Shown: piece after piece, positions 21,346-50,378 of the stretch
Numbering within the stretch: position 1 is the first letter of the stretch
Layout: each line of letters opens with the position of its first letter
Assembly (NCBI RefSeq): GCF_013167455.1
Contig: NZ_CP038328.1
DNA length: 64,000 nucleotides
DNA from: Escherichia coli O157:H7
GTDB taxonomy: Bacteria > Pseudomonadota > Gammaproteobacteria > Enterobacterales > Enterobacteriaceae
Strand: one strand, 5' to 3'
Notes under the pieces: generated by a model
Told to the model about the DNA's origin: nothing
The model's database searches: none
The model's input: the letters and a program-made list of their open reading frames with translations, nothing else
Made by a program: the position numbers and the translations under genes

Positions 21346-21347
21346 GT

Positions 21348-22313: not shown

Positions 22314-22315
22314 TG

Positions 22316-22795
22316 ATGTTTTTACGTCAGGAAGACTTTGCCACGGTAGTGCGCTCCACACCGCTTGTCTCTCTCGACTTTATTGTCGAGAACAGTCGCG
22401 GCGAGTTTCTGCTTGGCAAAAGAACCAACCGCCCGGCGCAGGGTTACTGGTTTGTGCCGGGAGGGCGCGTGCAGAAAGACGAAACGCTGGAAGCCGCATT
22501 TGAGCGGCTGACGATGGCGGAACTGGGGCTGCGTCTGCCGATAACAGCAGGCCAGTTTTACGGTGTCTGGCAGCACTTTTATGACGATAACTTCTCCGGC
22601 ACGGATTTCACCACTCACTATGTGGTGCTCGGTTTTCGCTTCAGAGTAGCGGAAGAAGAACTGTTACTGCCGGATGAGCAGCATGACGATTACCGCTGGC
22701 TGACGCCGGACGCGCTGCTCGCCAGTAACGATGTTCACGCTAACAGCCGCGCCTATTTTCTCGCTGAGAAGCGTGCCGGAGTACCCGGATTATGA
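22316..22795 (+). CDS. gmm: GDP-mannose mannosyl hydrolase (Nudix)
   Basis: [50 protein letters not shown]...; start may be the adjacent ATG at 22313. Confidence 0.9.
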
Positions 22796-24015
22796 AAATA
22801 CTGGTCTACGGCATTAACTACTCGCCGGAGTTAACCGGCATCGGCAAATACACCGGCGAGATGGTGGAATGGCTGGCGGCGCAAGGTCATGAGGTGCGGG
22901 TTATTACCGCACCGCCTTACTACCCGCAGTGGCAAGTGGGCGAGAACTATTCCGCCTGGCGGTACAAACGAGAAGAGGGGGCCGCTACGGTGTGGCGCTG
23001 CCCGCTGTACGTGCCAAAACAGCCGAGCACCCTGAAACGCCTGTTGCATCTCGGCAGTTTTGCCGTCAGCAGTTTTTTCCCGTTGATGGCGCAACGTCGC
23101 TGGAAGCCGGATCGCATTATCGGCGTAGTGCCAACGCTGTTTTGCACGCCGGGAATGCGCCTGCTGGCGAAACTCTCTGGCGCGCGTACCGTGCTGCATA
23201 TTCAGGATTACGAAGTAGATGCCATGCTGGGGCTGGGCCTTGCCGGAAAAGGCAAAGGCGGCAAAGTGGCACAGCTGGCAACGGCGTTCGAACGTAGCGG
23301 ACTGCATAACGTCGATAACGTTTCCACGATTTCGCGTTCGATGATGAATAAAGCCATCGAAAAAGGCGTGGCGGCGGAAAACGTCATCTTCTTCCCCAAC
23401 TGGTCGGAAATCGCCCGTTTTCAGCATGTTGCAGACGCCGATGTTGATGCCCTTCGTAACCAGCTTGGCCTGCCGGATAACAAAAAAATCATTCTTTACT
23501 CCGGCAATATTGGTGAAAAGCAGGGGCTGGAAAACGTTATTGAAGCAGCCGATCGCCTGCGCGATGAACCGCTGATTTTTGCCATTGTCGGGCAGGGCGG
23601 CGGCAAAGCGCGGCTGGAAAAAATGGCGCAGCAGCGTGGACTGCGCAACATGCAATTTTTCCCGCTGCAATCGTATGACGCTTTACCCGCACTGCTGAAG
23701 ATGGGCGATTGCCATCTGGTGGTGCAAAAACGCGGCGCGGCAGATGCCGTATTGCCGTCGAAACTGACCAATATTCTGGCAGTAGGCGGTAACTCGGTGA
23801 TTACTGCTGAAGCCCACACAGAACTGGGACAGCTTTGCGAAACCTTTCCGGGCATTGCGGTTTGCGTAGAACCGGAATCGGTTGAGGCGCTGGTGGCGGG
23901 GATTCGTCAGGCGCTCCTGCTGCCCAAACACAACACGGTGGCACGTGAATATGCCGAACGCACGCTCGATAAAGAGAACGTGTTACGTCAATTTATAAAT
24001 GATATTCGGGGATAA
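22792..24015 (+). CDS. wcaI: Colanic acid glycosyltransferase (GT4)
   Basis: 407 aa; position in cluster. Confidence 0.85.
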
Positions 24016-24017
24016 TT

Positions 24018-25454
24018 ATGGCGCAGTCGAAACTCTATCCAGTTGTGATGGCAGGTGGCTCCGGTAGCCGCTTATGGCCGCTTTCCCGCGTACTTTATCC
24101 CAAGCAGTTTTTATGCCTGAAAGGCGATCTCACCATGCTGCAAACCACCATCTGCCGCCTGAACGGCGTGGAGTGCGAAAGCCCTGTGGTGATTTGCAAT
24201 GAGCAGCACCGCTTTATTGTTGCGGAACAACTGCGTCAACTGAACAAACTCACTGAGAACATTATTCTCGAACCGGCAGGGCGTAACACAGCACCGGCCA
24301 TTGCGCTGGCGGCGCTGGCGGCAAAACGTCATAGCCCGGAGAACGACCCATTAATGCTGGTGCTGGCGGCGGATCATGTGATTGCCGATGAAGACGCATT
24401 CCGCGCCGCCGTGCGTAACGCTATGCCGTATGCCGAAGCGGGCAAGCTGGTGACCTTCGGCATTGTGCCGGATCTACCTGAAACCGGATATGGCTATATT
24501 CGTCGCGGTGAAGTGTCGGCGGGTGAGCAGGATACGGTGGCCTTTGAAGTGGCGCAGTTTGTCGAAAAACCAAATCTGGAAACCGCGCAGGCCTATGTGG
24601 CAAGCGGCGAATATTACTGGAACAGCGGTATGTTCCTGTTCCGTGCCGGACGCTATCTCGAAGAACTGAAAAAATATCGCCCGGATATTCTCGACGCCTG
24701 TGAAAAAGCGATGAGCGCCGTCGATCCGGATCTCGATTTTATTCGCGTGGATGAAGACGCGTTTCTGGCCTGCCCGGAAGAGTCGGTGGATTACGCGGTC
24801 ATGGAACGTACGGCAGATGCCGTTGTGGTGCCGATGGATGCGGGCTGGAGCGATGTCGGCTCCTGGTCCTCATTATGGGAGATCAGCGCCCACACCGCCG
24901 AGGGCAACGTTTGCCACGGCGATGTGATTAATCACAAAACTGAAAACAGCTATGTGTATGCCGAATCTGGCCTGGTCACCACCGTCGGGGTGAAAGATTT
25001 GGTGGTAGTGCAGACCAAAGATGCGGTGCTGATTGCCGACCGTAACGCGGTGCAGGATGTGAAAAAAGTGGTCGAGCAGATCAAAGCCGATGGTCGCCAT
25101 GAGCATCGGGTGCATCGCGAAGTCTATCGCCCGTGGGGCAAATATGACTCTATCGACGCGGGCGACCGCTACCAGGTGAAACGCATCACCGTGAAACCGG
25201 GCGAAGGCTTGTCGGTACAGATGCACCATCACCGCGCGGAACACTGGGTGGTTGTCGCGGGAACGGCAAAAGTCACCATTGACGGTGATATCAAACTGCT
25301 TGGTGAAAACGAGTCGATTTATATTCCGCTGGGGGCGACGCACTGCCTGGAAAACCCGGGGAAAATTCCGCTCGATTTAATTGAAGTGCGCTCCGGCTCT
25401 TATCTCGAAGAGGATGATGTGGTGCGCTTCGCGGATCGCTACGGACGGGTGTAA
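24018..25454 (+). CDS. cpsB: Mannose-1-phosphate guanylyltransferase (colanic acid copy)
   Basis: 478 aa [24 protein letters not shown]...; cupin-type C-terminal domain. Confidence 0.93.
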
Positions 25455-25598
<144 letters not shown>

Positions 25599-25646
25599 TT
25601 GGCCGTTTCGGTCAGGGCCAACTATTGCCTGAAAAAGGGTAACGAT

Positions 25647-27017
25647 ATGAAAAAATTAACCTGCTTTAAAGCCTATGATATTCGCGGGAAATTAGGCGAA
25701 GAACTGAATGAAGATATTGCCTGGCGCATTGGTCGTGCCTATGGCGAATTTCTCAAACCGAAAACCATTGTGTTAGGCGGTGATGCCCGTCTCACCAGCG
25801 AAACCTTAAAACTGGCGCTGGCAAAAGGTTTACAGGATGCGGGCGTTGACGTGCTGGATATTGGTATGTCCGGCACCGAAGAGATCTATTTCGCCACGTT
25901 CCATCTCGGCGTGGATGGCGGCATTGAAGTTACTGCCAGCCATAACCCGATGGATTACAACGGCATGAAACTGGTGCGCGAAGGGGCTCGCCCGATCAGC
26001 GGCGATACCGGACTGCGCGATGTCCAGCGTCTGGCAGAAGCCAACGACTTTCCTCCCGTTGATGAAACCAAACGCGGTCGCTATCAGCAAATCAATCTGC
26101 GTGACGCTTACGTTGATCACCTGTTCGGTTATATCAACGTCAAAAACCTTACGCCGCTCAAGCTGGTGATCAACTCCGGGAACGGCGCGGCGGGTCCGGT
26201 GGTGGACGCCATCGAAGCCCGCTTTAAAGCCCTCGGCGCACCGGTGGAATTGATCAAAGTGCACAACACGCCCGACGGCAATTTCCCCAACGGTATTCCT
26301 AACCCGCTGCTGCCGGAATGTCGCGACGACACCCGCAATGCGGTCATTAAACACGGCGCGGATATGGGCATTGCTTTTGATGGCGATTTTGACCGCTGTT
26401 TCCTGTTTGACGAAAAAGGGCAGTTTATCGAGGGCTACTACATTGTCGGTCTGCTGGCAGAAGCGTTCCTCGAAAAAAATCCCGGCGCGAAGATCATCCA
26501 CGATCCACGTCTCTCCTGGAATACCGTTGATGTGGTGACTGCCGCAGGCGGCACCCCGGTAATGTCGAAAACCGGACACGCCTTTATTAAAGAACGGATG
26601 CGCAAGGAAGACGCCATCTACGGTGGCGAAATGAGCGCCCACCATTACTTCCGTGATTTTGCTTACTGCGACAGCGGCATGATCCCGTGGCTGCTGGTCG
26701 CCGAACTGGTGTGCCTGAAAGGAAAGACGCTGGGCGAACTGGTGCGCGACCGGATGGCAGCGTTTCCGTCAAGCGGTGAGATCAACAGCAAACTGGCGCA
26801 ACCCGTTGAGGCGATTAACCGCGTGGAACAGCATTTTAGCCGTGAGGCGCTGGCGGTGGATCGCACCGATGGCATCAGCATGACCTTTGCCGACTGGCGC
26901 TTTAATCTGCGCTCCTCCAACACCGAACCGGTGGTGCGGTTGAATGTGGAATCACGCGGTGATGTGCCGCTGATGGAAGCGCGAACGCGAACTCTGCTGA
27001 CGTTGCTGAACGAGTAA
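25647..27017 (+). CDS. cpsG: Phosphomannomutase (colanic acid copy)
   Basis: [29 protein letters not shown]...; phosphohexomutase active site TASHNP. Confidence 0.93.
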
Positions 27018-29949: not shown

Positions 29950-30110
29950 GTTGTTTTCGGTTCCGACAACGGTTGCCGGGTGCAGCGTAAAACACCTTAT
30001 CCATCCTACGGTTCTGTGCTCGGGTCTTGTAGGCCTGATAAGACGCGCCAGCGTCGCATCAGGCAAAAAACGGCAACGAACACAACAAACACAGCCTCAC
30101 CTGGCATCAA
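29950..30110. repeat. REP/BIME cluster between wzxC and wcaK
   Basis: Repeated ...CCTTATCCATCCTACGG...GTAGGCCTGATAAGACGCGCCAGCGTCGCATCAGGC... units. Confidence 0.7.
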
Positions 30111-36635: not shown

Positions 36636-37418
36636 ATGAACAAAGAAACCGTTTCAATAATTATGCCCGTTTACAATGGGGCCAAAACTATAATCTCATC
36701 AGTAGAATCAATTATACATCAATCTTATCAAGATTTTGTTTTGTATATCATTGACGATTGTAGCACCGATGATACATTTTCATTAATCAACAGTCGATAC
36801 AAAAACAATCAGAAAATAAGAATATTGCGTAACAAGACAAATTTAGGTGTTGCAGAAAGTCGAAATTATGGAATAGAAATGGCCACGGGGAAATATATTT
36901 CTTTTTGTGATGCGGATGATTTGTGGCACGAGAAAAAATTAGAGCGTCAAATCGAAGTGTTAAATAATGAATGTGTAGATGTGGTATGTTCTAATTATTA
37001 TGTTATAGATAACAAAAGAAATATTGTTGGCGAAGTTAATGCTCCTCATGTGATAAATTATAGAAAAATGCTCATGAAAAACTACATAGGGAATTTGACA
37101 GGAATCTATAATGCCAACAAATTGGGTAAGTTTTATCAAAAAAAGATTGGTCACGAGGATTATTTGATGTGGCTGGAAATAATTAATAAAACAAATGGTG
37201 CTATTTGTATTCAAGATAATCTGGCGTATTACATGCGTTCAAATAATTCACTATCGGGTAATAAAATTAAAGCTGCAAAATGGACATGGAGTATATATAG
37301 AGAACATTTACATTTGTCCTTTCCAAAAACATTATATTATTTTTTATTATATGCTTCAAATGGAGTCATGAAAAAAATAACACATTCACTATTAAGGAGA
37401 AAGGAGACTAAAAAGTGA
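36636..37418 (+). CDS. wbdN: O-antigen glycosyltransferase (GT2)
   Basis: 260 aa; GT2 signature (VSIIMPVYNG, DDCSTD, DADD); AT-rich codon usage; first gene after galF in the O157-type order. Confidence 0.8.
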   Translation: MNKETVSIIMPVYNGAKTIISSVESIIHQSYQDFVLYIIDDCSTDDTFSLINSRYKNNQKIRILRNKTNLGVAESRNYGIEMATGKYISFCDADDLWHEKKLERQIEVLNNECVDVVCSNYYVIDNKRNIVGEVNAPHVINYRKMLMKNYIGNLTGIYNANKLGKFYQKKIGHEDYLMWLEIINKTNGAICIQDNLAYYMRSNNSLSGNKIKAAKWTWSIYREHLHLSFPKTLYYFLLYASNGVMKKITHSLLRRKETKK

Positions 37419-38599
37419 AGTCAGCGGCTAAGTTGATTTTTTTATTCCTATTTACACTTTATAGTCTCCAGTTGTATGGGGTTATCATAGATGATCGTAT
37501 AACAAATTTTGATACAAAGGTATTAACTAGTATTATAATTATATTTCAGATTTTTTTTGTTTTATTATTTTATCTAACGATTATAAATGAAAGAAAACAG
37601 CAGAAAAAATTTATCGTGAACTGGGAGCTAAAGTTAATACTCGTTTTCCTTTTTGTGACTATAGAAATTGCTGCTGTAGTTTTATTTCTTAAAGAAGGTA
37701 TTCCTATATTTGATGATGATCCAGGGGGGGCTAAACTTAGAATAGCTGAAGGTAATGGACTTTACATTAGATATATTAAGTATTTTGGTAATATAGTTGT
37801 GTTTGCATTAATTATTCTTTATGATGAGCATAAATTCAAACAGAGGACCATCATATTTGTATATTTTACAACGATTGCTTTATTTGGTTATCGTTCTGAA
37901 TTGGTGTTGCTCATTCTTCAATATATATTGATTACCAATATCCTGTCAAAGGATAACCGTAATCCTAAAATAAAAAGAATAATAGGGTATTTTTTATTGG
38001 TAGGGGTTGTATGCTCGTTGTTTTATCTAAGTTTAGGACAAGACGGAGAACAAAATGACTCATATAATAATATGTTAAGGATAATTAATAGGTTAACAAT
38101 AGAGCAAGTTGAAAGTGTTCCATATGTTGTTTCTGAATCTATTAAGAACGATTTCTTTCCGACACCAGAGTTAGAAAAGGAATTAAAAGCAATAATAAAT
38201 AGAATACAGGGAATAAAGCATCAAGACTTATTTTATGGAGAACGGTTACATAAACAAGTATTTGGAGACATGGGAGCAAATTTTTTATCAGTTACTACGT
38301 ATGGAGCAGAACTGTTAGTTTTTTTTGGTTTTCTCTGTGTATTCATTATCCCTTTAGGGATATATATACCTTTTTATCTTTTAAAGAGAATGAAAAAAAC
38401 CCATAGCTCGATAAATTGCGCATTCTATTCATATATCATTATGATTTTATTGCAATACTTAGTGGCTGGGAATGCATCGGCCTTCTTTTTTGGTCCTTTT
38501 CTCTCCGTATTGATAATGTGTACTCCTCTGATCTTATTGCATGATACGTTAAAGAGATTATCACGAAATGAAAATATCAGTTATAACTGTGACTTATAA
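37415..38599 (+). CDS. wzy: O-antigen polymerase Wzy
   Basis: 394 aa, very hydrophobic polytopic protein, AT-rich, GTG start overlapping wbdN. Confidence 0.75.
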   Translation: MKSAAKLIFLFLFTLYSLQLYGVIIDDRITNFDTKVLTSIIIIFQIFFVLLFYLTIINERKQQKKFIVNWELKLILVFLFVTIEIAAVVLFLKEGIPIFDDDPGGAKLRIAEGNGLYIRYIKYFGNIVVFALIILYDEHKFKQRTIIFVYFTTIALFGYRSELVLLILQYILITNILSKDNRNPKIKRIIGYFLLVGVVCSLFYLSLGQDGEQNDSYNNMLRIINRLTIEQVESVPYVVSESIKNDFFPTPELEKELKAIINRIQGIKHQDLFYGERLHKQVFGDMGANFLSVTTYGAELLVFFGFLCVFIIPLGIYIPFYLLKRMKKTHSSINCAFYSYIIMILLQYLVAGNASAFFFGPFLSVLIMCTPLILLHDTLKRLSRNENISYNCDL

Positions 38600-39314
38600 T
38601 AATGCTGAAGGGTTAGAAAAAACTTTAAGTAGTTTATCAATTTTAAAAATAAAACCTTTTGAGATTATTATAGTTGATGGCGGCTCTACAGATGGAACGA
38701 ATCGTGTCATTAGTAGATTTACTAGTATGAATATTACACATGTTTATGAAAAAGATGAAGGGATATATGATGCGATGAATAAGGGCCGAATGTTGGCCAA
38801 AGGCGACTTAATACATTATTTAAACGCCGGCGATAGCGTAATTGGAGATATATATAAAAATATCAAAGAGCCATGTTTGATTAAAGTTGGCCTTTTCGAA
38901 AATGATAAACTTCTGGGATTTTCTTCTATAACCCATTCAAATACAGGGTATTGTCATCAAGGGGTGATTTTCCCAAAGAATCATTCAGAATATGATCTAA
39001 GGTATAAAATATGTGCTGATTATAAGCTTATTCAAGAGGTGTTTCCTGAAGGGTTAAGATCTCTATCTTTGATTACTTCGGGTTATGTAAAATATGATAT
39101 GGGGGGAGTATCTTCAAAAAAAAGAATTTTAAGAGATAAAGAGCTTGCCAAAATTATGTTTGAAAAAAATAAAAAAAACCTTATTAAGTTTATTCCAATT
39201 TCAATAATCAAAATTTTATTCCCTGAACGTTTAAGAAGAGTATTGCGGAAAATGCAATATATTTGTCTAACTTTATTCTTCATGAAGAATAGTTCACCAT
39301 ATGATAATGAATAA
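38568..39314 (+). CDS. wbdO: O-antigen glycosyltransferase (GT2)
   Basis: 248 aa MKISVITVTYNNAEGLEKTL...IIVDGGSTDGT; GT2 motifs. Confidence 0.78.
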   Translation: MKISVITVTYNNAEGLEKTLSSLSILKIKPFEIIIVDGGSTDGTNRVISRFTSMNITHVYEKDEGIYDAMNKGRMLAKGDLIHYLNAGDSVIGDIYKNIKEPCLIKVGLFENDKLLGFSSITHSNTGYCHQGVIFPKNHSEYDLRYKICADYKLIQEVFPEGLRSLSLITSGYVKYDMGGVSSKKRILRDKELAKIMFEKNKKNLIKFIPISIIKILFPERLRRVLRKMQYICLTLFFMKNSSPYDNE

Positions 39315-40692
39315 AATCAAAAAAATACTTAAATTTTGCACTTTAAAAAAATATGATACATCAAGTGCTTTAGGTAGAGAACAGGAAAGGTACAGGATTA
39401 TATCCTTGTCTGTTATTTCAAGTTTGATTAGTAAAATACTCTCACTACTTTCTCTTATATTAACTGTAAGTTTAACTTTACCTTATTTAGGACAAGAGAG
39501 ATTTGGTGTATGGATGACTATTACCAGTCTTGGTGCTGCTCTGACATTTTTGGACTTAGGTATAGGAAATGCATTAACAAACAGGATCGCACATTCATTT
39601 GCGTGTGGCAAAAATTTAAAGATGAGTCGGCAAATTAGTGGTGGGCTCACTTTGCTGGCTGGATTATCGTTTGTCATAACTGCAATATGCTATATTACTT
39701 CTGGCATGATTGATTGGCAACTAGTAATAAAAGGTATAAACGAGAATGTGTATGCAGAGTTACAACACTCAATTAAAGTCTTTGTAATCATATTTGGACT
39801 TGGAATTTATTCAAATGGTGTGCAAAAAGTTTATATGGGAATACAAAAAGCCTATATAAGTAATATTGTTAATGCCATATTTATATTGTTATCTATTATT
39901 ACTCTAGTAATATCGTCGAAACTACATGCGGGACTACCAGTTTTAATTGTCAGCACTCTTGGTATTCAATACATATCGGGAATCTATTTAACAATTAATC
40001 TTATTATAAAGCGATTAATAAAGTTTACAAAAGTTAACATACATGCTAAAAGAGAAGCTCCATATTTGATATTAAACGGTTTTTTCTTTTTTATTTTACA
40101 GTTAGGCACTCTGGCAACATGGAGTGGTGATAACTTTATAATATCTATAACATTGGGTGTTACTTATGTTGCTGTTTTTAGCATTACACAGAGATTATTT
40201 CAAATATCTACGGTCCCTCTTACGATTTATAACATCCCGTTATGGGCTGCTTATGCAGATGCTCATGCACGCAATGATACTCAATTTATAAAAAAGACGC
40301 TCAGAACATCATTGAAAATAGTGGGTATTTCATCATTCTTATTGGCCTTCATATTAGTAGTGTTCGGTAGTGAAGTCGTTAATATTTGGACAGAAGGAAA
40401 GATTCAGGTACCTCGAACATTCATAATAGCTTATGCTTTATGGTCTGTTATTGATGCTTTTTCGAATACATTTGCAAGCTTTTTAAATGGTTTGAACATA
40501 GTTAAACAACAAATGCTTGCTGTTGTAACATTGATATTGATCGCAATTCCAGCAAAATACATCATAGTTAGCCATTTTGGGTTAACTGTTATGTTGTACT
40601 GCTTCATTTTTATATATATTGTAAATTACTTTATATGGTATAAATGTAGTTTTAAAAAACATATCGATAGACAGTTAAATATAAGAGGATGA
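39301..40692 (+). CDS. wzx: O-antigen flippase Wzx
   Basis: 463 aa polytopic membrane protein; position. Confidence 0.78.
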   Translation: MIMNKIKKILKFCTLKKYDTSSALGREQERYRIISLSVISSLISKILSLLSLILTVSLTLPYLGQERFGVWMTITSLGAALTFLDLGIGNALTNRIAHSFACGKNLKMSRQISGGLTLLAGLSFVITAICYITSGMIDWQLVIKGINENVYAELQHSIKVFVIIFGLGIYSNGVQKVYMGIQKAYISNIVNAIFILLSIITLVISSKLHAGLPVLIVSTLGIQYISGIYLTINLIIKRLIKFTKVNIHAKREAPYLILNGFFFFILQLGTLATWSGDNFIISITLGVTYVAVFSITQRLFQISTVPLTIYNIPLWAAYADAHARNDTQFIKKTLRTSLKIVGISSFLLAFILVVFGSEVVNIWTEGKIQVPRTFIIAYALWSVIDAFSNTFASFLNGLNIVKQQMLAVVTLILIAIPAKYIIVSHFGLTVMLYCFIFIYIVNYFIWYKCSFKKHIDRQLNIRG

Positions 40693-40694
40693 AA

Positions 40695-41789
40695 ATGAAA
40701 TATATACCAGTTTACCAACCGTCATTGACAGGAAAAGAAAAAGAATATGTAAATGAATGTCTGGACTCAACGTGGATTTCATCAAAAGGAAACTATATTC
40801 AGAAGTTTGAAAATAAATTTGCGGAACAAAACCATGTGCAATATGCAACTACTGTAAGTAATGGAACGGTTGCTCTTCATTTAGCTTTGTTAGCGTTAGG
40901 TATATCGGAAGGAGATGAAGTTATTGTTCCAACACTGACATATATAGCATCAGTTAATGCTATAAAATACACAGGAGCCACCCCCATTTTCGTTGATTCA
41001 GATAATGAAACTTGGCAAATGTCTGTTAGTGACATAGAACAAAAAATCACTAATAAAACTAAAGCTATTATGTGTGTCCATTTATACGGACATCCATGTG
41101 ATATGGAACAAATTGTAGAACTGGCCAAAAGTAGAAATTTGTTTGTAATTGAAGATTGCGCTGAAGCCTTTGGTTCTAAATATAAAGGTAAATATGTGGG
41201 AACATTTGGAGATATTTCTACTTTTAGCTTTTTTGGAAATAAAACTATTACTACAGGTGAAGGTGGAATGGTTGTCACGAATGACAAAACACTTTATGAC
41301 CGTTGTTTACATTTTAAAGGCCAAGGATTAGCTGTACATAGGCAATATTGGCATGACGTTATAGGCTACAATTATAGGATGACAAATATCTGCGCTGCTA
41401 TAGGATTAGCCCAGTTAGAACAAGCTGATGATTTTATATCACGAAAACGTGAAATTGCTGATATTTATAAAAAAAATATCAACAGTCTTGTACAAGTCCA
41501 CAAGGAAAGTAAAGATGTTTTTCACACTTATTGGATGGTCTCAATTCTAACTAGGACCGCAGAGGAAAGAGAGGAATTAAGGAATCACCTTGCAGATAAA
41601 CTCATCGAAACAAGGCCAGTTTTTTACCCTGTCCACACGATGCCAATGTACTCGGAAAAATATCAAAAGCACCCTATAGCTGAGGATCTTGGTTGGCGTG
41701 GAATTAATTTACCTAGTTTCCCCAGCCTATCGAATGAGCAAGTTATTTATATTTGTGAATCTATTAACGAATTTTATAGTGATAAATAG
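40695..41789 (+). CDS. per: GDP-perosamine synthase (PLP-dependent DegT/DnrJ/EryC1-family aminotransferase)
   Basis: MKYIPVYQPSLTGKEKEYVNECLDSTWISSKGNYIQKFEN...; aminotransferase fold; the classical O157 rfbE marker position. Confidence 0.88.
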   Translation: MKYIPVYQPSLTGKEKEYVNECLDSTWISSKGNYIQKFENKFAEQNHVQYATTVSNGTVALHLALLALGISEGDEVIVPTLTYIASVNAIKYTGATPIFVDSDNETWQMSVSDIEQKITNKTKAIMCVHLYGHPCDMEQIVELAKSRNLFVIEDCAEAFGSKYKGKYVGTFGDISTFSFFGNKTITTGEGGMVVTNDKTLYDRCLHFKGQGLAVHRQYWHDVIGYNYRMTNICAAIGLAQLEQADDFISRKREIADIYKKNINSLVQVHKESKDVFHTYWMVSILTRTAEEREELRNHLADKLIETRPVFYPVHTMPMYSEKYQKHPIAEDLGWRGINLPSFPSLSNEQVIYICESINEFYSDK

Positions 41790-41813
41790 CCTAAAATATT
41801 GTAAAGGTCATTC

Positions 41814-43028
41814 ATGAAAATTGCGTTGAATTCAGATGGATTTTACGAGTGGGGCGGTGGAATTGATTTTATTAAATATATTCTGTCAATATTAGAAACG
41901 AAACCAGAAATATGTATCGATATTCTTTTACCGAGAAATGATATACATTCTCTTATAAGAGAAAAAGCATTTCCTTTTAAAAGTATATTAAAAGCAATTT
42001 TAAAGAGGGAAAGGCCTCGATGGATTTCATTAAATAGATTTAATGAGCAATACTATAGAGATGCCTTTACACAAAATAATATAGAGACGAATCTTACCTT
42101 TATTAAAAGTAAGAGCTCTGCCTTTTATTCATATTTTGATAGTAGCGATTGTGATGTTATTCTTCCTTGCATGCGTGTTCCTTCGGGAAATTTGAATAAA
42201 AAAGCATGGATTGGTTATATTTATGACTTTCAACACTGTTACTATCCTTCATTTTTTAGTAAGCGAGAAATAGATCAAAGGAATGTGTTTTTTAAATTGA
42301 TGCTCAATTGCGCTAACAATATTATTGTTAATGCACATTCAGTTATTACCGATGCAAATAAATATGTTGGGAATTATTCTGCAAAACTACATTCTCTTCC
42401 ATTTAGTCCATGCCCTCAATTAAAATGGTTCGCTGATTACTCTGGTAATATTGCCAAATATAATATTGACAAGGATTATTTTATAATTTGCAATCAATTT
42501 TGGAAACATAAAGATCATGCAACTGCTTTTAGGGCATTTAAAATTTATACTGAATATAATCCTGATGTTTATTTAGTATGCACGGGAGCTACTCAAGATT
42601 ATCGATTCCCTGGATATTTTAATGAATTGATGGTTTTGGCAAAAAAGCTCGGAATTGAATCGAAAATTAAGATATTAGGGCATATACCTAAACTTGAACA
42701 AATTGAATTAATCAAAAATTGCATTGCTGTAATACAACCAACCTTATTTGAAGGCGGGCCTGGAGGGGGGGTAACATTTGACGCTATTGCATTAGGGAAA
42801 AAAGTTATACTATCTGACATAGATGTCAATAAAGAAGTTAATTGCGGTGATGTATATTTCTTTCAGGCAAAAAACCATTATTCATTAAATGACGCGATGG
42901 TAAAAGCTGATGAATCTAAAATTTTTTATGAACCTACAACTCTGATAGAATTGGGTCTCAAAAGACGCAATGCGTGTGCAGATTTTCTTTTAGATGTTGT
43001 GAAACAAGAAATTGAATCCCGATCTTAA
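41814..43028 (+). CDS. wbdP: O-antigen glycosyltransferase (GT4)
   Basis: 404 aa; GT4-like C-terminal domain; position. Confidence 0.75.
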
Positions 43029-43047
43029 TATATTCAAGAGGTATATA

Positions 43048-44166
43048 ATGACTAAAGTCGCTCTTATTACAGGTGTAACTGGACAAGATGGATCTTATCT
43101 AGCTGAGTTTTTGCTTGATAAAGGGTATGAAGTTCATGGTATCAAACGCCGAGCCTCATCTTTTAATACAGAACGCATAGACCATATTTATCAAGATCCA
43201 CATGGTTCTAACCCAAATTTTCACTTGCACTATGGAGATCTGACTGATTCATCTAACCTCACTAGAATTCTAAAGGAGGTACAGCCAGATGAAGTATATA
43301 ATTTAGCTGCTATGAGTCACGTAGCAGTTTCTTTTGAGTCTCCAGAATATACAGCCGATGTCGATGCAATTGGTACATTACGTTTACTGGAAGCAATTCG
43401 CTTTTTAGGATTGGAAAACAAAACGCGTTTCTATCAAGCTTCAACCTCAGAATTATATGGACTTGTTCAGGAAATCCCTCAAAAAGAATCCACCCCTTTT
43501 TATCCTCGTTCCCCTTATGCAGTTGCAAAACTTTACGCATATTGGATCACGGTAAATTATCGAGAGTCATATGGTATTTATGCATGTAATGGTATATTGT
43601 TCAATCATGAATCTCCACGCCGTGGAGAAACGTTTGTAACAAGGAAAATTACTCGAGGACTTGCAAATATTGCACAAGGCTTGGAATCATGTTTGTATTT
43701 AGGGAATATGGATTCGTTACGAGATTGGGGACATGCAAAAGATTATGTTAGAATGCAATGGTTGATGTTACAACAGGAGCAACCCGAAGATTTTGTGATT
43801 GCAACAGGAGTCCAATACTCAGTCCGTCAGTTTGTCGAAATGGCAGCAGCACAACTTGGTATTAAGATGAGCTTTGTTGGTAAAGGAATCGAAGAAAAAG
43901 GCATTGTAGATTCGGTTGAAGGACAGGATGCTCCAGGTGTGAAACCAGGTGATGTCATTGTTGCTGTTGATCCTCGTTATTTCCGACCAGCTGAAGTTGA
44001 TACTTTGCTTGGAGATCCGAGCAAAGCTAATCTCAAACTTGGTTGGAGACCAGAAATTACTCTTGCTGAAATGATTTCTGAAATGGTTGCCAAAGATCTT
44101 GAAGCCGCTAAAAAACATTCTCTTTTAAAATCGCATGGTTTTTCTGTAAGCTTAGCTCTGGAATGA
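43048..44166 (+). CDS. gmd: GDP-mannose 4,6-dehydratase (O-antigen copy)
   Basis: [50 protein letters not shown]...; protein highly similar to the colanic acid Gmd, but the DNA is AT-rich and diverged. Confidence 0.93.
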
Positions 44167-45134
44167 TGATGAATAAGCAACGTATTTTTATTGCTGGTCA
44201 CCAAGGAATGGTTGGATCAGCTATTACCCGACGCCTCAAACAACGTGATGATGTTGAGTTGGTTTTACGTACTCGGGATGAATTGAACTTGTTGGATAGT
44301 AGCGCTGTTTTGGATTTTTTTTCTTCACAGAAAATCGACCAGGTTTATTTGGCAGCAGCAAAAGTCGGAGGTATTTTAGCTAACAGTTCTTATCCTGCCG
44401 ATTTTATATATGAGAATATAATGATAGAGGCGAATGTCATTCATGCTGCCCACAAAAATAATGTAAATAAACTGCTTTTCCTCGGTTCGTCGTGTATTTA
44501 TCCTAAGTTAGCACACCAACCGATTATGGAAGACGAATTATTACAAGGGAAACTTGAGCCAACAAATGAACCTTATGCTATCGCAAAAATTGCAGGTATT
44601 AAATTATGTGAATCTTATAACCGTCAGTTTGGGCGTGATTACCGTTCAGTAATGCCAACCAATCTTTATGGTCCAAATGACAATTTTCATCCAAGTAATT
44701 CTCATGTGATTCCGGCGCTTTTGCGCCGCTTTCATGATGCTGTGGAAAACAATTCTCCGAATGTTGTTGTTTGGGGAAGTGGTACTCCAAAGCGTGAATT
44801 CTTACATGTAGATGATATGGCTTCTGCAAGCATTTATGTCATGGAGATGCCATACGATATATGGCAAAAAAATACTAAAGTAATGTTGTCTCATATCAAT
44901 ATTGGAACAGGTATTGACTGCACGATTTGTGAGCTTGCGGAAACAATAGCAAAAGTTGTAGGTTATAAAGGGCATATTACGTTCGATACAACAAAGCCCG
45001 ATGGAGCCCCTCGAAAACTACTTGATGTAACGCTTCTTCATCAACTAGGTTGGAATCATAAAATTACCCTTCACAAGGGTCTTGAAAATACATACAACTG
45101 GTTTCTTGAAAACCAACTTCAATATCGGGGGTAA
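44163..45134 (+). CDS. fcl: GDP-L-fucose synthase-like reductase (O-antigen copy)
   Basis: 323 aa [46 protein letters not shown]... Confidence 0.9.
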
Positions 45135-45136
45135 TA

Positions 45137-45646
45137 ATGTTTTTACATTCCCAAGACTTTGCCACAATTGTAAGGTCTACTCCTCTTATTTCTATAGATT
45201 TGATTGTGGAAAACGAGTTTGGCGAAATTTTGCTAGGAAAACGAATCAACCGCCCGGCACAGGGCTATTGGTTCGTTCCTGGTGGTAGGGTGTTGAAAGA
45301 TGAAAAATTGCAGACAGCCTTTGAACGATTGACAGAAATTGAACTAGGAATTCGTTTGCCTCTCTCTGTGGGTAAGTTTTATGGTATCTGGCAGCACTTC
45401 TACGAAGACAATAGTATGGGGGGAGACTTTTCAACGCATTATATAGTTATAGCATTCCTTCTTAAATTACAACCAAACATTTTGAAATTACCGAAGTCAC
45501 AACATAATGCTTATTGCTGGCTATCGCGAGCAAAGCTGATAAATGATGACGATGTGCATTATAATTGTCGCGCATATTTTAACAATAAAACAAATGATGC
45601 GATTGGCTTAGATAATAAGGATATAATATGTCTGATGCGCCAATAA
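45137..45646 (+). CDS. wbdQ: GDP-mannose mannosyl hydrolase (Nudix; O-antigen copy)
   Basis: 169 aa [50 protein letters not shown]... Confidence 0.88.
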
Positions 45647-47076
45647 TTGCTGTAGTTATGGCCGGTGGTACAGGCAGTCGTCTTTGGCCACTTTCTCGTG
45701 AACTATATCCAAAGCAGTTTTTACAACTCTCTGGTGATAACACCTTGTTACAAACGACTTTGCTACGACTTTCAGGCCTATCATGTCAAAAACCATTAGT
45801 GATAACAAATGAACAGCATCGCTTTGTTGTGGCTGAACAGTTAAGGGAAATAAATAAATTAAATGGTAATATTATTCTAGAACCATGCGGGCGAAATACT
45901 GCACCAGCAATAGCGATATCTGCGTTTCATGCGTTAAAACGTAATCCTCAGGAAGATCCATTGCTTCTAGTTCTTGCGGCAGACCACGTTATAGCTAAAG
46001 AAAGTGTTTTCTGTGATGCTATTAAAAATGCAACTCCCATCGCTAATCAAGGTAAAATTGTAACGTTTGGAATTATACCAGAATATGCTGAAACTGGTTA
46101 TGGGTATATTGAGAGAGGTGAACTATCTGTACCGCTTCAAGGGCATGAAAATACTGGTTTTTATTATGTAAATAAGTTTGTCGAAAAGCCTAATCGTGAA
46201 ACCGCAGAATTGTATATGACTTCTGGTAATCACTATTGGAATAGTGGAATATTCATGTTTAAGGCATCTGTTTATCTTGAGGAATTGAGAAAATTTAGAC
46301 CTGACATTTACAATGTTTGTGAACAGGTTGCCTCATCCTCATACATTGATCTAGATTTTATTCGATTATCAAAAGAACAATTTCAAGATTGTCCTGCTGA
46401 ATCTATTGATTTTGCTGTAATGGAAAAAACAGAAAAATGTGTTGTATGCCCTGTTGATATTGGTTGGAGTGACGTTGGATCTTGGCAATCGTTATGGGAC
46501 ATTAGTCTAAAATCGAAAACAGGAGATGTATGTAAAGGTGATATATTAACCTATGATACTAAGAATAATTATATCTACTCTGAGTCAGCGTTGGTAGCCG
46601 CCATTGGAATTGAAGATATGGTTATCGTGCAAACTAAAGATGCCGTTCTTGTGTCTAAAAAGAGTGATGTACAGCATGTAAAAAAAATAGTCGAAATGCT
46701 TAAATTGCAGCAACGTACAGAGTATATTAGTCATCGTGAAGTTTTCCGACCATGGGGAAAATTTGATTCGATTGACCAAGGTGAGCGATACAAAGTCAAG
46801 AAAATTATTGTGAAACCTGGTGAGGGGCTTTCTTTAAGGATGCATCACCATCGTTCTGAACATTGGATCGTGCTTTCTGGTACAGCAAAAGTAACCCTTG
46901 GCGATAAAACTAAACTAGTCACCGCAAATGAATCGATATACATTCCCCTTGGCGCAGCGTATAGTCTTGAGAATCCGGGCATAATCCCTCTTAATCTTAT
47001 TGAAGTCAGTTCAGGGGATTATTTGGGAGAGGATGATATTATAAGACAGAAAGAACGTTACAAACATGAAGATTAA
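45628..47076 (+). CDS. manC: Mannose-1-phosphate guanylyltransferase (O-antigen copy)
   Basis: 482 aa [24 protein letters not shown]...; AT-rich DNA unlike cpsB. Confidence 0.92.
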
Positions 47077-47079
47077 CAT

Positions 47080-48450
47080 ATGAAATCTTTAACCTGCTTT
47101 AAAGCCTATGATATTCGCGGGAAATTAGGCGAAGAACTGAATGAAGATATTGCCTGGCGCATTGGGCGTGCCTATGGCGAATTTCTCAAACCGAAAACCA
47201 TTGTTTTAGGCGGTGATGTCCGCCTCACCAGCGAAGCGTTAAAACTGGCGCTTGCGAAAGGTTTACAGGATGCGGGCGTCGATGTGCTGGATATCGGTAT
47301 GTCCGGCACCGAAGAGATCTATTTCGCCACGTTCCATCTCGGAGTGGATGGCGGCATCGAAGTTACCGCCAGCCATAACCCGATGGATTACAACGGCATG
47401 AAGCTGGTGCGCGAAGGGGCTCGCCCGATCAGCGGTGATACCGGACTGCGCGATGTCCAGCGTCTGGCAGAAGCCAATGACTTCCCTCCTGTCGATGAAA
47501 CCAAACGTGGTCGCTATCAGCAAATCAATCTGCGTGACGCTTACGTTGATCACCTGTTCGGTTATATCAACGTCAAAAACCTCACGCCGCTCAAGCTGGT
47601 GATCAACTCCGGGAACGGCGCAGCGGGTCCGGTGGTGGACGCCATTGAAGCCCGATTTAAAGCCCTCGGCGCACCGGTGGAATTAATCAAAGTACACAAC
47701 ACGCCGGACGGCAATTTCCCCAACGGTATTCCTAACCCGCTGCTGCCGGAATGCCGCGACGACACCCGTAATGCGGTCATCAAACACGGCGCGGATATGG
47801 GCATTGCCTTTGATGGCGATTTTGACCGCTGTTTCCTGTTTGACGAAAAAGGGCAGTTTATCGAGGGCTACTACATTGTCGGCCTGCTGGCAGAAGCGTT
47901 CCTCGAAAAAAATCCCGGCGCGAAGATCATCCACGATCCACGTCTCTCCTGGAACACCGTTGATGTGGTGACTGCCGCAGGCGGCACCCCGGTAATGTCG
48001 AAAACCGGACACGCCTTTATTAAAGAACGTATGCGCAAGGAAGACGCCATCTACGGTGGCGAAATGAGCGCTCACCATTACTTCCGTGATTTCGCTTACT
48101 GCGACAGCGGCATGATCCCGTGGCTGCTGGTCGCCGAACTGGTGTGCCTGAAAGGAAAAACGCTGGGCGAAATGGTGCGCGACCGGATGGCGGCGTTTCC
48201 GGCAAGCGGTGAGATCAACAGCAAACTGGCGCAACCCGTTGAGGCAATTAATCGCGTGGAACAGCATTTTAGCCGCGAGGCGCTGGCGGTGGATCGCACC
48301 GATGGCATCAGCATGACCTTTGCCGACTGGCGCTTTAACCTGCGCTCCTCCAACACCGAACCGGTGGTGCGGTTGAATGTGGAATCACGCGGTGATGTAA
48401 AGCTAATGGAAAAGAAAACTAAAGCTCTTCTTAAATTGCTAAGTGAGTGA
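47080..48450 (+). CDS. manB: Phosphomannomutase (O-antigen copy; near-identical to cpsG at DNA level except the extreme 5' and 3' ends)
   Basis: 456 aa [29 protein letters not shown]...; high-GC body matching cpsG; the last ~20 codons are AT-rich and divergent (...[19 protein letters not shown]). Confidence 0.93.
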
Positions 48451-48689: not shown

Positions 48690-49650
48690 AGGAGAACAAA
48701 ATGGAACTTAAAATAATTGAGACAATAGATTTTTATTATCCCTGTTTACGATATTATAGCCAAAGTTGTATCCTGCATCAGTCCTGCAATATTTCACGAG
48801 TGCTTTGTTAACTGAATACATGTCTGCCATTTTCCAGATGATAACGACGTCATCGCAATTGATGGTAAAACACTTCGGCACACTTATGACAAGAGTCGTC
48901 GCAGAGGAGTGGTTCATGTCATTAGTGCGTTTCAGCAATGCACAGTCTGGTCCTCGGATAGATCAAGACGGATGAGAAACCTAATGCGTTCACAGTTATT
49001 CATGAACTTTCTAAAATGATGGGTATTAAAGGAAAAATAATCATAACTGATGCGATGGCTTGCCAGAAAGATATTGCAGAGAAGATATAAAAACAGAGAT
49101 GTGATTATTTATTCGCTGTAAAAGGAAATAAGAGTCGGCTTAATAGAGTCTTTGAGGAGATATTTACGCTGAAAGAATTAAATAATCCAAAACATGACAG
49201 TTACGCAATTAGTGAAAAGAGGCACGGCAGAGACGATGTCCGTCTTCATATTGTTTGAGATGCTCCTGATGAGCTTATTGATTTCACGTTTGAATGGAAA
49301 GGGCTGCAGAATTTATGAATGGCAGTCCACTTTCTCTCAATAATAGCAGAGCAAAAGAAAGAATCCGAAATGACGATCAAATATTATATTAGATCTGCTG
49401 CTTTAACCGCAGAGAAGTTCGCCACAGTAAATCGAAATCACTGGCGCATGGAGAATAAGTTGCACAGTAGCCTGATGTGGTAATGAATGAAATCGACTAT
49501 AATATAAGAAGGCGAGTTGCATTCGAATGATTTTCTAGAATGCGGCACATCGCTATTAATATCTGACAATGATAATGTATTCAAGGCAGGATTATCATGT
49601 AAGATGCGAAAAGCAGTCATGGACAGAAACTTCCTAGCGTCAGGCATTGC
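48690..49650 (+). mobile_element. Degenerate H-repeat (ISAs1-family) transposase remnant
   Basis: Frame-hopping translation gives MELK..., [155 protein letters not shown]-repeat-protein blocks interrupted by multiple stops and frameshifts. Confidence 0.8.
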
Positions 49651-49712
49651 AGCGTGCGGGCTTTCATAATCTTGCATTGGTTTTGATAAGATATTTCTTT
49701 GGAGATGGGAAA

Positions 49713-50378
49713 ATGAATTTGTATGGTATTTTTGGTGCTGGAAGTTATGGTAGAGAAACAATACCCATTCTAAATCAACAAATAAAGCAAGAATGTGGTT
49801 CTGACTATGCTCTGGTTTTTGTGGATGATGTTTTGGCAGGAAAGAAAGTTAATGGTTTTGAAGTGCTTTCAACCAACTGCTTTCTAAAAGCCCCTTATTT
49901 AAAAAAGTATTTTAATGTTGCTATTGCTAATGATAAGATACGACAGAGAGTGTCTGAGTCAATATTATTACACGGGGTTGAACCAATAACTATAAAACAT
50001 CCAAATAGCGTTGTTTATGATCATACTATGATAGGTAGTGGCGCTATTATTTCTCCCTTTGTTACAATATCTACTAATACTCATATAGGGAGGTTTTTTC
50101 ATGCAAACATATACTCATACGTTGCACATGATTGTCAAATAGGAGACTATGTTACATTTGCTCCTGGGGCTAAATGTAATGGATATGTTGTTATTGAAGA
50201 CAATGCATATATAGGCTCGGGTGCAGTAATTAAGCAGGGTGTTCCTAATCGCCCACTTATTATTGGCGCGGGAGCCATTATAGGTATGGGGGCTGTTGTC
50301 ACTAAAAGTGTTCCTGCCGGTATAACTGTGTGCGGAAATCCAGCAAGAGAAATGAAAAGATCGCCAACATCTATTTAA
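49713..50378 (+). CDS. wbdR: Hexapeptide-repeat acetyltransferase, probable GDP-perosamine N-acetyltransferase
   Basis: MNLYGIFGAGSYGRETIPIL...; C-terminal left-handed beta-helix repeats; last gene before gnd as in the O157 cluster. Confidence 0.8.
   Translation: MNLYGIFGAGSYGRETIPILNQQIKQECGSDYALVFVDDVLAGKKVNGFEVLSTNCFLKAPYLKKYFNVAIANDKIRQRVSESILLHGVEPITIKHPNSVVYDHTMIGSGAIISPFVTISTNTHIGRFFHANIYSYVAHDCQIGDYVTFAPGAKCNGYVVIEDNAYIGSGAVIKQGVPNRPLIIGAGAIIGMGAVVTKSVPAGITVCGNPAREMKRSPTSI

Follow-up and report, generated by a model that had tools for sequence, protein, structure and literature searches.

A mosaic manB in the Escherichia coli O157 O-antigen cluster: probable concerted evolution with colanic-acid cpsG, and deletion between the two repeats

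Described exchanges and deletions between manB and cpsG

In Salmonella enterica, O-antigen manB is said to be highly identical to the colanic-acid manB, with manC low in GC and diverged, and gene conversion was reportedly proposed for this by Jensen and Reeves in 2001. The locus described here would resemble that pattern, in other clusters of another species, and manB of the O86 cluster shows it within E. coli. For the O157 cluster itself, replacement of the original manB by its colanic-acid equivalent has been described (Samuel 2004, J Bacteriol 186:6536, as relayed in Iguchi 2011, PMC3158064). Among O157 clusters, manB was named as the one divergent gene and was attributed to gene conversion with cpsG, to which it is more than 95% identical (Iguchi 2011, PMC3158064).

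Deletions between the two genes are likewise on record. [quoted passage not shown] A natural strain, the O14 type strain, is reported to have lost the genes between the same two repeats through a deletion of this kind (PMC7685785, 2020).

The locus analysed here is the gene treated by Samuel (2004) and Iguchi (2011) and leads to the same conclusion, with nothing essential differing as far as the former work is conveyed by the latter. REL606 differs in strain and O cluster, had already lost its O antigen, and underwent its events in the laboratory, whereas the O157:H7 deletions described below are 21,433 bp long, are found in sequenced isolates and would abolish the diagnostic antigen. Relative to the O14 type strain, the mechanism is the same and the serogroup differs. 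The mosaic origin of manB and cpsG–manB deletions are thus already known, and the current understanding of the biology is unchanged by our results. What is added to the O157 work is the exact position of the junctions (nt 9/10 and 1319/1320), counts of fixed and shared polymorphisms, and allele comparisons that argue against the resident cpsG as a recent donor.

Anatomy of the repeat pair

The window, a stretch of 64,000 nt, is the cps/O157 locus of a chromosome of the E. coli O157:H7 type, with the genes for colanic acid and for the O157 O antigen. Positions given below are those of the window, and every gene or segment named lies on its + strand. The upstream copy of the repeat is the colanic-acid phosphomannomutase gene cpsG (25647–27017), which carries the same RefSeq annotation in O157:H7 genomes; the downstream copy is manB of the O157 O-antigen cluster (47080–48450; UniRef name MANB_ECO57). 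Both are ORFs of 1371 nt encoding 456 aa. A repeat search and a global alignment place them in a single ungapped register with an offset of 21,433 bp, and they differ at 68 positions (95.0% identity over the whole gene). Forty-five of these mismatches are spread over the 1310 nt of a gapless core at gene nt 10–1319 (25656–26965 in cpsG, 47089–48398 in manB), which is 96.6% identical. The sequence-only reading, made from the letters of the window, had announced a near-identical direct repeat of ~1.3 kb; its coordinates were correct to within ~10 nt, but near-identity in the sense of 99–100% overstates the case.

Beyond the core the resemblance stops abruptly. Codon 3 of manB (nt 7–9; 47086–47088) is TCT (Ser) where cpsG has AAA (Lys), a mismatch at 3/3 positions, and the final 52 nt (48399–48450, the last 17 codons and the stop) contain 20 mismatches, leaving 62% identity. 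Alignment shows no relation between the two copies 5′ of the ATG or 3′ of the stop. The junctions at nt 9/10 and nt 1319/1320 are accordingly sharp, the latter with a shift in mismatch density (Fisher p = 7e-15) and a fall in GC from 55% to 31%. TCT is found in 4/4 O157 manB alleles and AAA in 12/12 cpsG alleles, while the manB tail is identical in 4/4 O157 clusters; codon 3 is therefore taken as a cluster-specific 5′ remnant marking the 5′ junction, and the AT-rich tail as what is left of the original manB at the 3′ end. The 16-residue peptide encoded by this tail is colinear with a 16-residue peptide of CpsG. An AT-rich, divergent tail had been anticipated from the letters of the window, with a length of ~60 nt that is here reduced to 52.

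Composition sets the core apart from its surroundings in the same way. GC is 55.3% in the manB core, 30.8% in the tail, 34.1% in the O-antigen cluster (36636–47076) and 36.5% downstream, and GC3 is 0.62 in manB vs 0.24–0.36 in its neighbours in the same operon. The early description of manB as a high-GC patch in an AT-rich island therefore holds. So does the description of the O-antigen copies of the other duplicated genes as diverged and AT-rich. The colanic-acid gmd, fcl, gmm, wcaI and cpsB (20224–25454, GC about 55%) and the O157-cluster gmd, fcl, gmm (wbdQ) and manC (43048–47076) are paralogues that remain un-homogenised: nucleotide identity is 73% for gmd, 70% for fcl, 60% for gmm and 61% for cpsB/manC, and GC of the paired genes is 54–57% on the colanic-acid side vs 38–39% in the O157 cluster. 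Their longest identical run is only 14 nt. In contrast to the uniformly moderate identity of these pairs, cpsG and manB share 19 mismatch-free runs that are ≥25 nt long, the longest of which (up to 77 nt) lie at nt 10–86 and 730–803. No Chi site was found when the homology tract was scanned. Antisense ORFs inside the two copies, which had been described as duplicated, coincide in part only (25830–26645 vs 47683–48267) and are a trivial by-product of the repeat.

Between the repeats (27018–47079) lie wcaJ, wzxC, wcaK, wcaL, wcaM, gne, galF, wbdN, wzy, wbdO, wzx, rfbE/per, wbdP, gmd, fcl, gmm/wbdQ and manC, identified from ORFs and from the RefSeq annotation of collinear O157 loci. Just 3′ of manB is the remnant of an ISAs1 (H-repeat) transposase gene (48738–49669), annotated as a RefSeq pseudogene in identical loci; its coordinates were carried over from a deletion locus of the 7.1_Anguil/CEC13002 type (L001, offset 39,932). 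It is followed by perB (wbdR; 49713–50378), annotated as the gene for GDP-perosamine N-acetyltransferase.

Both repeat products match the NCBIfam model NF011943, ‘phosphomannomutase CpsG’ (cutoff 801), over residues 1–455/456, manB with 1051.1 bits and cpsG with 1054.7 bits, and the domains PF02878, PF02879, PF02880 and PF00408 (PGM_PMM I–IV) are recorded for products of the locus in related contigs. Both translations contain the motif TASHNP, which we take to be the phosphoserine active-site motif of the alpha-D-phosphohexomutase superfamily. Family membership thus suggests that manB is a functional phosphomannomutase gene whose product would interconvert mannose-6-phosphate and mannose-1-phosphate.

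Allele pattern and origin of the manB core

In all likelihood, manB is a mosaic gene that evolves in concert with the cpsG alleles of the species and forms, with cpsG, a pair prone to repeat-mediated deletion. An ancestral, AT-rich manB of the O157 cluster would have had nt 10–1319 swapped for the sequence of its colanic-acid paralogue, with only codon 3 and the 52-nt tail left of the old gene, and this first replacement would have given the two loci an island in which they are >95% identical. Afterwards, ordinary RecA-type homologous recombination could have exchanged sequence across the island, through gene conversion within one genome or through the replacement of alleles by incoming E. coli DNA. 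Because the island lets the two loci exchange, the manB core would evolve together with the species-wide cpsG pool, with exchange halting at two fixed ends of homology, and gmd, fcl, gmm and manC would have remained 27–40% diverged, never having acquired such an island. The anatomy, the allele pattern in the population and the products of deletion are observed directly; from them we infer the dependence on RecA, the order of these events and the shares of intragenomic and inter-strain exchange. The gene would be a textbook-style case of a short island of identity that allows diverged paralogous operons to exchange while their neighbours do not.

Every O157:H7 genome listed carries the manB of the window at 100% identity, and 295 of the 305 complete genomes with an intact manC–manB–downstream junction carry it at ≥99% identity. 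As a query it matched 5724 places in 4689 genomes, from which a second cpsG-like copy can be counted in roughly 1000 genomes. Alleles were compared in a small sample comprising four O157 manB genes (H7, H16 Santai, NN5 and STECUZB006) and 12 cpsG alleles. Among the four O157 clusters, manC differs at 0–7 of 1449 nt and both manB ends at 0 nt, whereas the manB core comes as three distinct alleles 42–58 nt apart, Santai and NN5 differing by just 4 nt. The 12 cpsG alleles differ from one another by a median of 45.5 nt (range 8–61). Between the 4 manB and the 12 cpsG alleles, a single difference is fixed in the core (nt 1093) vs 20 in the ends. At 37 of the 45 sites where H7 manB differs from its own cpsG, the difference is a polymorphism present in other cpsG alleles. 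By these measures the manB core is indistinguishable in behaviour from a further cpsG allele of E. coli. The proposal of the sequence-only reading, that recombination or gene conversion with cpsG made manB a mosaic, is supported by the cpsG-like core and cluster-specific ends of the gene and agrees with the published account (Iguchi 2011, PMC3158064), and is refined here to probable exchange with the allele pool of the species. Mosaicism extends to O86, where manB is cpsG-like from nt 1 to ~1100 and continues as an AT-rich homologous 3′ part, with a junction that differs from that of O157.

A history with fewer steps, in which manB was replaced by cpsG once and long ago, was inherited with the O157 cluster and has since changed by point mutation only, would fit the codon 3 and nt 1319/1320 junctions that are the same in all O157 clusters examined, and the distance of ~3.4% between the H7 core and every cpsG allele. 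It would leave unexplained why the core has diverged so far beyond manC and the manB ends, a roughly tenfold excess in rate that covers exactly the homology tract, and why the variant sites, fixed in one case, are mostly polymorphisms shared with cpsG and arranged in patches. The divergence of manB was also found to be anomalous in earlier work, and its dN/dS of 0.045 makes positive selection an unlikely cause (Iguchi 2011, PMC3158064). We regard a single ancient replacement as unlikely.

Somewhat less probable again is a recent intragenomic conversion from the resident cpsG of the strain, for which the two copies are suitably placed, on the same chromosome in direct orientation, 21 kb apart and 96.6% identical. 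The resident gene does not look like a recent donor of the core, since its 45 differences from H7 manB match the population median of manB-to-cpsG differences (44). A cpsG allele from another strain (L006) is closer, with 36 differences, and is the closest in the sample; the longest run identical to H7 manB is 77 nt in the resident gene vs up to 209 nt in a foreign allele. The fixation of the manB allele at ≥99% identity over 295 O157:H7 genomes also speaks against a recent event. No cpsG allele at least 99% identical to the whole H7 manB core was present among 5426 genomes, so that no donor allele could be named. The allele pattern instead points to long-term concerted evolution rather than to one recent conversion. 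In the four O157 strains, manB cores lie 42–55 differences from their own resident cpsG, and intragenomic conversion is thus not directly seen in those genomes; their exchange pattern could equally well reflect inter-strain recombination at either locus. Two O157:H7 short-read drafts, at what is an artefact-prone locus, hold candidate conversions in both directions, one with a clean single cpsG patch in manB (L030, markers 1080–1197) and one with a clean single manB patch in cpsG (L035, markers 87–216). Every conversion variant that we predicted is present in public assemblies, but most of them, as multi-switch mosaics in metagenome contigs or in drafts dating from 2014, were rejected as artefacts.

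The similarity itself, or the deletion variants described below, might be products of assembly, which we consider very improbable. In its favour, short-read drafts often mis-assemble the locus, the chimeras that suggest deletions are matched by reciprocal ones, and multi-switch mosaics occur in 2014 drafts and a MEGAHIT metagenome contig. For the window, the 68 differing sites, the conservation of the manB allele across genomes and the 305 complete genomes with the intact manC–manB–downstream junction confirm that the similarity is real and exclude a collapse of one copy onto the other. That possibility, raised by the sequence-only reading against its own proposal, applies instead to many public short-read assemblies. 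Selection on protein or codon usage, acting without recombination, could be thought to keep two genes alike that encode the same enzyme, with ManB feeding both pathways, but it is already refuted by the reach of the similarity into synonymous sites (see GC3 above), with abrupt boundaries and with gmd, whose copies are 89% identical in protein but only 73% in DNA, as an example of what selection alone would leave.

Deletion products and short-read artefacts

Homologous recombination has a minimal processing segment of ~25 nt. The cpsG and manB copies are on the same strand and in the same register, share identical runs longer than this, and have single-crossover products among sequenced genomes; they are a substrate for direct-repeat deletion. 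Since they lie 21,433 bp apart in direct orientation, an unequal crossover would delete wcaJ through manC, which would remove O157 O-antigen synthesis and the completion of colanic acid and leave a single in-frame cpsG–manB chimera.

When complete genomes were searched with a synthetic junction query, two O157:H7 genomes, 7.1_Anguil and CEC13002 (L001 and L002), matched over 100% of the query in a single piece. Both have lost 21,433 bp as predicted: cpsB, the chimera, the ISAs1 remnant, perB and gnd stand next to one another, and the flanks match the window at ≥99.97% identity; perB is the sole O157-specific gene to survive. Each chimera has one clean crossover, at nt 1114–1122 in 7.1_Anguil and nt 1261–1319 in CEC13002, and no new mutations. 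rfbE is present in 305 genomes, the number with an intact manC–manB junction. A combined junction and rfbE query gave 11 places vs 12–13, which is no more than consistent with the absence of rfbE from the two deletion genomes, in a search made noisy by REP elements in the cpsB–cpsG spacer. A term search of the papers on 7.1_Anguil and CEC13002 found no mention of the deletion, and the literature searched, which lacked most subscription journals, held nothing specific on an O157 rough variant arising from cpsG–manB deletion.

Several observations weigh against these two deletions being artefacts. Both genomes were assembled from long reads (PacBio with HGAP3; ONT reads of ≥7 kb with Flye), and no junction of a loop or duplication occurs in any complete genome. 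In 7.1_Anguil, the crossover interval of 9 nt is too short for k-mer confusion, and the reciprocal protein is missing from a collection of 15 billion proteins. The CEC13002 junction was recovered from independent Illumina reads (run DRR381748, Logan contig L022). The expectation that the repeats are a substrate for deletion or duplication is therefore borne out for deletion; for a tandem duplication of the 21.4-kb unit, the complete genomes contained no junction, the best coverage of 87% coming from the native cpsG–wcaJ part.

Short-read drafts present a different picture. Chimeras of the ‘deletion’ type number 58 contigs in class C and 7 in class A, and the reciprocal chimeras, with the N-terminal part of manB and the C-terminal part of cpsG, number 57 and 25. 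The longest contig with a reciprocal chimera is exactly 21,433 bp, and an example of such a loop contig carries manC, the chimera, wcaJ and wzxC. Most of the ‘deletion’ contigs in these drafts probably arose in assembly, since loop contigs of 21,433 bp with the reciprocal chimera form their counterpart, and the 80–90 independent deletions that draft look-ups seemed to offer were mostly rejected on this ground. Switch points of the artefact chimeras fall in the two longest identical runs. At this repeat, short-read assemblers produce a spurious deletion contig and, alongside it, a circular contig of 21,433 bp that contains the O-antigen cluster. Serotyping in silico, pan-genome studies and plasmid analyses can all be misled by such contigs. 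An rfbE match on a ‘plasmid’ was considered as a loop contig and rejected, the record being a 438-kb one from a pig isolate.

A single deletion between the repeats is enough to take out the O157 antigen genes, among them rfbE, wzx and wzy, on which diagnosis usually relies, as the two complete O157:H7 genomes show, and isolates with the deletion would type as O-rough or O-untypeable despite belonging to the O157:H7 clone. We advance only tentatively, and with more doubt than conviction, the broader proposition that cpsG–manB is an active hotspot of instability in circulating O157:H7, recurrently yielding Shiga-toxin-producing variants without O antigen or colanic acid, which would be missed by O157-based culture, immunocapture, rfbE PCR and in-silico serotyping, and allowing conversion in both directions among members of the clone. 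Read-level contigs show three or more different crossover intervals (nt 1114–1122, 1198–1259 and 1261–1319), and the two deletion genomes, both published and of reference quality, belong to separate clades, 7.1_Anguil to clade 6 and CEC13002 to clade 8.

Boundaries and composition of the cpsG-manB repeat

The colanic-acid phosphomannomutase gene cpsG (25647-27017) and its paralogue in the O157 O-antigen cluster, manB (47080-48450), are each 1371 nt long and align in ungapped register. A repeat search across the whole window placed them in a direct repeat family starting at 25645 and 47078, 21,433 bp apart from start to start, and picked up the gmd, fcl, gmm and manC regions as far weaker families, at 71-74% identity. 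In a sliding window over the global alignment, identity is at least 90% from ~25645 to ~26965 and both flanks are essentially unrelated, giving a sharp high-identity tract rather than uniformly moderate identity. The ungapped alignment contains three mismatches in codon 3 (nt 7-9; AAA vs TCT), 45 in nt 10-1319 (the core; 96.6% identity) and 20 in the last 52 nt (the tail), with a sharp rise in mismatch density at nt 1319/1320 (Fisher p = 7e-15). Over the whole gene, 47 codon differences are synonymous and 12 nonsynonymous, seven of the latter falling within the last 16 codons. The sequence-only reading had called the two genes almost identical, which holds for an ungapped 1.3-kb match if near-identity is taken as 96.6% in the core. 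The AT-rich, divergent 3′-end it described is present but measures 52 nt, not ~60 nt, and the internal antisense ORFs it considered duplicated overlap only partially in an ORF comparison.

The GC content of the manB core is 55.3% and that of its tail 30.8%, compared with 34.1% in the O-antigen genes upstream and 36.5% in the DNA downstream, confirming manB as a high-GC patch in an AT-rich island. The O-antigen copies of gmd, fcl, gmm and manC are strongly diverged, as had been proposed, sharing 60-73% DNA identity with their colanic-acid paralogues. Since the gmd pair nevertheless retains 89% protein identity, selection on the protein alone does not keep DNA identity. Recombination requires ~25 nt of identity; cpsG and manB share 19 mismatch-free stretches of 25 nt or longer, up to a maximum of 77 nt, whereas the longest run in the other four paralogous pairs is 14 nt, which offers a simple mechanistic reason for exchange being confined to this pair. 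Both the CpsG and ManB proteins pass the curated CpsG phosphomannomutase model.

A 44-nt palindromic repeat with many matches genome-wide occurs in the cpsB-cpsG spacer (25515-25558) and the wzxC-wcaK spacer (30023-30066), the copies being 95% identical. Iguchi et al. (2011; PMC3158064) describe REP elements in the same spacers as junction points of indels and recombination, and the repeat corresponds to these. At position 23794, in wcaI, the window has T and all 11 related O157:H7 loci covering the position have G; the difference is either a SNP private to this strain or an error made in sequencing its source.

Origin of the manB core

The O157:H7 genomes listed share this manB at 100% identity and 295 complete genomes at 99% or more, while about 4,200 further genomes match it at 95-97% through cpsG. 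The 5,724 matching places lie in 4,689 genomes, which implies a second cpsG-like copy in about 1,000 of them. Collinear RefSeq loci have the order wcaD-F, gmd, fcl, gmm, wcaI, cpsB, cpsG, wcaJ, wzxC, wcaKLM, gne and galF, followed by the O157 genes (glycosyltransferases, wzy, wzx, rfbE, gmd, fcl, gmm, manC and manB), an ISAs1 remnant, perB, gnd, ugd, wzzB and his. The ISAs1 (H-repeat) transposase remnant (48738-49669, between manB and perB) is frameshifted with internal stops, shares 87-88% identity with intact ISEc1 copies elsewhere, and is kept in all O157 clusters examined, including those outside H7. An rfbE identical to that of the window was also found at 128364-129464 of NZ_CP114132.1, a 438,722-bp record from a pig-gut E. 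coli and the sole "plasmid" record with O157 rfbE; a record this large points to a mislabelled chromosome fragment or chromid.

We compared the O157 clusters of the window (H7), O157:H16 Santai, NN5 and STECUZB006, together with eight further cpsG alleles picked across the identity range. Among the four clusters, manC differs by 0-7 nt and manB not at all in its first 9 and last 52 nt, yet the three distinct manB alleles differ by 42-58 nt in the core; only 4 nt separate Santai from NN5. These distances resemble those among cpsG alleles (median 45.5 nt, range 8-61) and between manB and cpsG alleles (median 44 nt). Only one core site (nt 1093) is a fixed difference between manB and cpsG, against 20 sites in the two ends. 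Other cpsG alleles carry 37 of the 45 variants that separate H7 manB from the cpsG of its own chromosome. Variable sites are shared in patches among alleles; the H7 and STECUZB006 cores, for example, share a 284-nt stretch without mismatches near the 3′-end and differ in the 5′ two-thirds. From this combination of a diverse core, invariant ends and shared polymorphisms, the manB core is seen to behave like an additional allele of the E. coli cpsG pool, held between two fixed junctions. Recent conversion from the resident cpsG in this lineage can be rejected, as that gene, at 45 differences, is as distant from manB as an allele taken at random.

The cpsG alleles of NN5 and Santai are 49 nt apart and their manB genes only 4 nt, suggesting that the O157 cluster moved between these backgrounds without cpsG. 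NN5, a non-H7 O157 isolate from water, also carries an IS2 insertion between wcaM and gne (9211-10439 of its own locus sequence).

The manB of O86 follows the same cpsG-mosaic design with a different 3′ junction, being cpsG-like to about nt 1100 and AT-rich but clearly homologous thereafter. This supports the reading of the 52-nt O157 tail as a remnant of an original low-GC manB. The O86-type cluster is that of strain CH4796 (NZ_CM166348.1), whose manB has a 3′-end 24 nt longer. The strain is probably O-rough, judging from an IS1 insertion that splits galE and from frameshifted wzx and wzy.

The proposed mosaic formation of manB through recombination or conversion with cpsG is thus borne out by fixed junctions, shared cpsG polymorphisms and published precedent. 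In an earlier comparison, manB is the one divergent gene among O157 clusters, shares >95% identity with cpsG at a dN/dS of 0.045, and was proposed to undergo gene conversion (Iguchi et al., 2011; PMC3158064); its replacement by the colanic-acid gene is credited there to Samuel et al. (2004).

Deletions between the repeats in O157:H7

A synthetic in-register deletion junction, run against complete genomes, matched over 100% of its length in one piece in two: 7.1_Anguil (O157:H7, cattle, Argentina, clade 6) and CEC13002 (human, Japan, subgroup SG8_31A of clade 8). Downstream of cpsB, each genome has a 1371-nt chimera free of new mutations and then the ISAs1 remnant, perB and gnd, with flanks matching the window at 99.97% identity or more. 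The single cpsG-to-manB switch lies at nt 1114-1122 in 7.1_Anguil and nt 1261-1319 in CEC13002, indicating independent events. Several points argue that these deletions are real. The assemblies are long-read (PacBio, 30-kb library, HGAP3; and Flye on ONT reads of 7 kb or longer, respectively), and an independent Logan contig from the CEC13002 MiSeq run DRR381748 has the same junction. Furthermore, rfbE occurs in 305 genomes, exactly the number with an intact manC-manB-downstream junction, which is consistent with its absence from both deletion genomes, the direct check being noisy. Term searches of the papers on these genomes found no mention of O-antigen, rough, manB or rfb/rfbE.

Logan contigs are built with k = 31 and no repeat resolution. 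In eight runs they lead from cps-specific sequence upstream into O157-specific sequence downstream and change once, terminally, to manB-type sequence (nt 1114-1122, 1198-1259 or 1261-1319), one run also having an isolated marker at nt 606. With both copies in the genome, contigs of this kind would be expected to break, and these are therefore probably real deletions. The repeats had been predicted to support both deletion and duplication, and only the former was recovered, no complete genome containing a duplication junction.

In the LTEE, 10 of the 12 populations lost the manB-cpsG region, with seven events due to recombination between the 96%-identical genes (Raeside et al., 2014; PMC4173774), and a 2026 preprint describes the resulting chimeric enzyme (bioRxiv 10.64898/2026.06.14.732165). 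The O14 type strain likewise lost its O-antigen cluster through recombination between two manB genes (Jensen and Reeves, 2004, in Liu et al., 2020; PMC7685785). The feature is real, correctly interpreted and already described for this very gene, both its mosaic and deletion readings being established (Iguchi et al., 2011; Raeside et al., 2014; Liu et al., 2020). Our additions are incremental: exact junctions, figures that show manB evolving in concert with the pool of cpsG alleles, two O157:H7 deletion genomes of reference quality, and a warning on false deletion and loop contigs in public drafts.

Chimeras and candidate conversion tracts in draft assemblies

Exact-sequence look-ups of predicted chimeric proteins in drafts returned deletion chimeras on 58 contigs for class C (crossover at codons 54-364), 7 for class A, 8 for class D and 6 for class E. 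Many additional deletions might be read from these counts, but reciprocal chimeras (manB N-terminus, cpsG C-terminus) are about as common (R_C, 57; R_A, 25; R_E, 7), and the longest R_C and R_A contigs are exactly 21,433 bp, one such contig holding manC, the chimera, wcaJ and wzxC. Class A and C chimeras switch within the longest mismatch-free stretches of the two genes (nt 10-86 and 730-803). Systematic short-read mis-assembly is the parsimonious explanation for both classes, if both contig types arose in common assemblies: one phase switch inside the repeat would yield a false deletion contig and a circular "loop" contig. Class D, the 7.1_Anguil type with its switch within a 9-nt interval, has no reciprocal partner anywhere in the protein collection and recurs in a 2012 draft and three Logan runs.

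All four predicted patch variants were present at the expected loci in public assemblies, mostly as multi-switch mosaics typical of bubble-popping assemblers. Two are single clean patches, one of cpsG in manB (L030, markers 1080-1197) and one of manB in cpsG (L035, markers 87-216), and are suggestive as candidate conversion tracts within O157:H7. Other records (L031-L034 and L036-L038, from 2014 O157:H7 drafts GCA_0006xxxxx and ENA ERZ1308086; L020, ENA ERZ27236780) show 4-12 switches between parental markers in their cpsG and manB copies, most likely through paralogue mixing by the assembler, and inflate apparent allele diversity in protein databases. Contig ABHWDH010000056.1 of GCA_024922945.1 (21,433 bp) and some 80 public contigs like it have exactly the length of one repeat period and hold the O157 O-antigen genes and wcaJ-wcaM, closed through a reciprocal manB/cpsG chimera. 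Although such contigs could pass for circular elements, they probably represent loop artefacts of the assembler.
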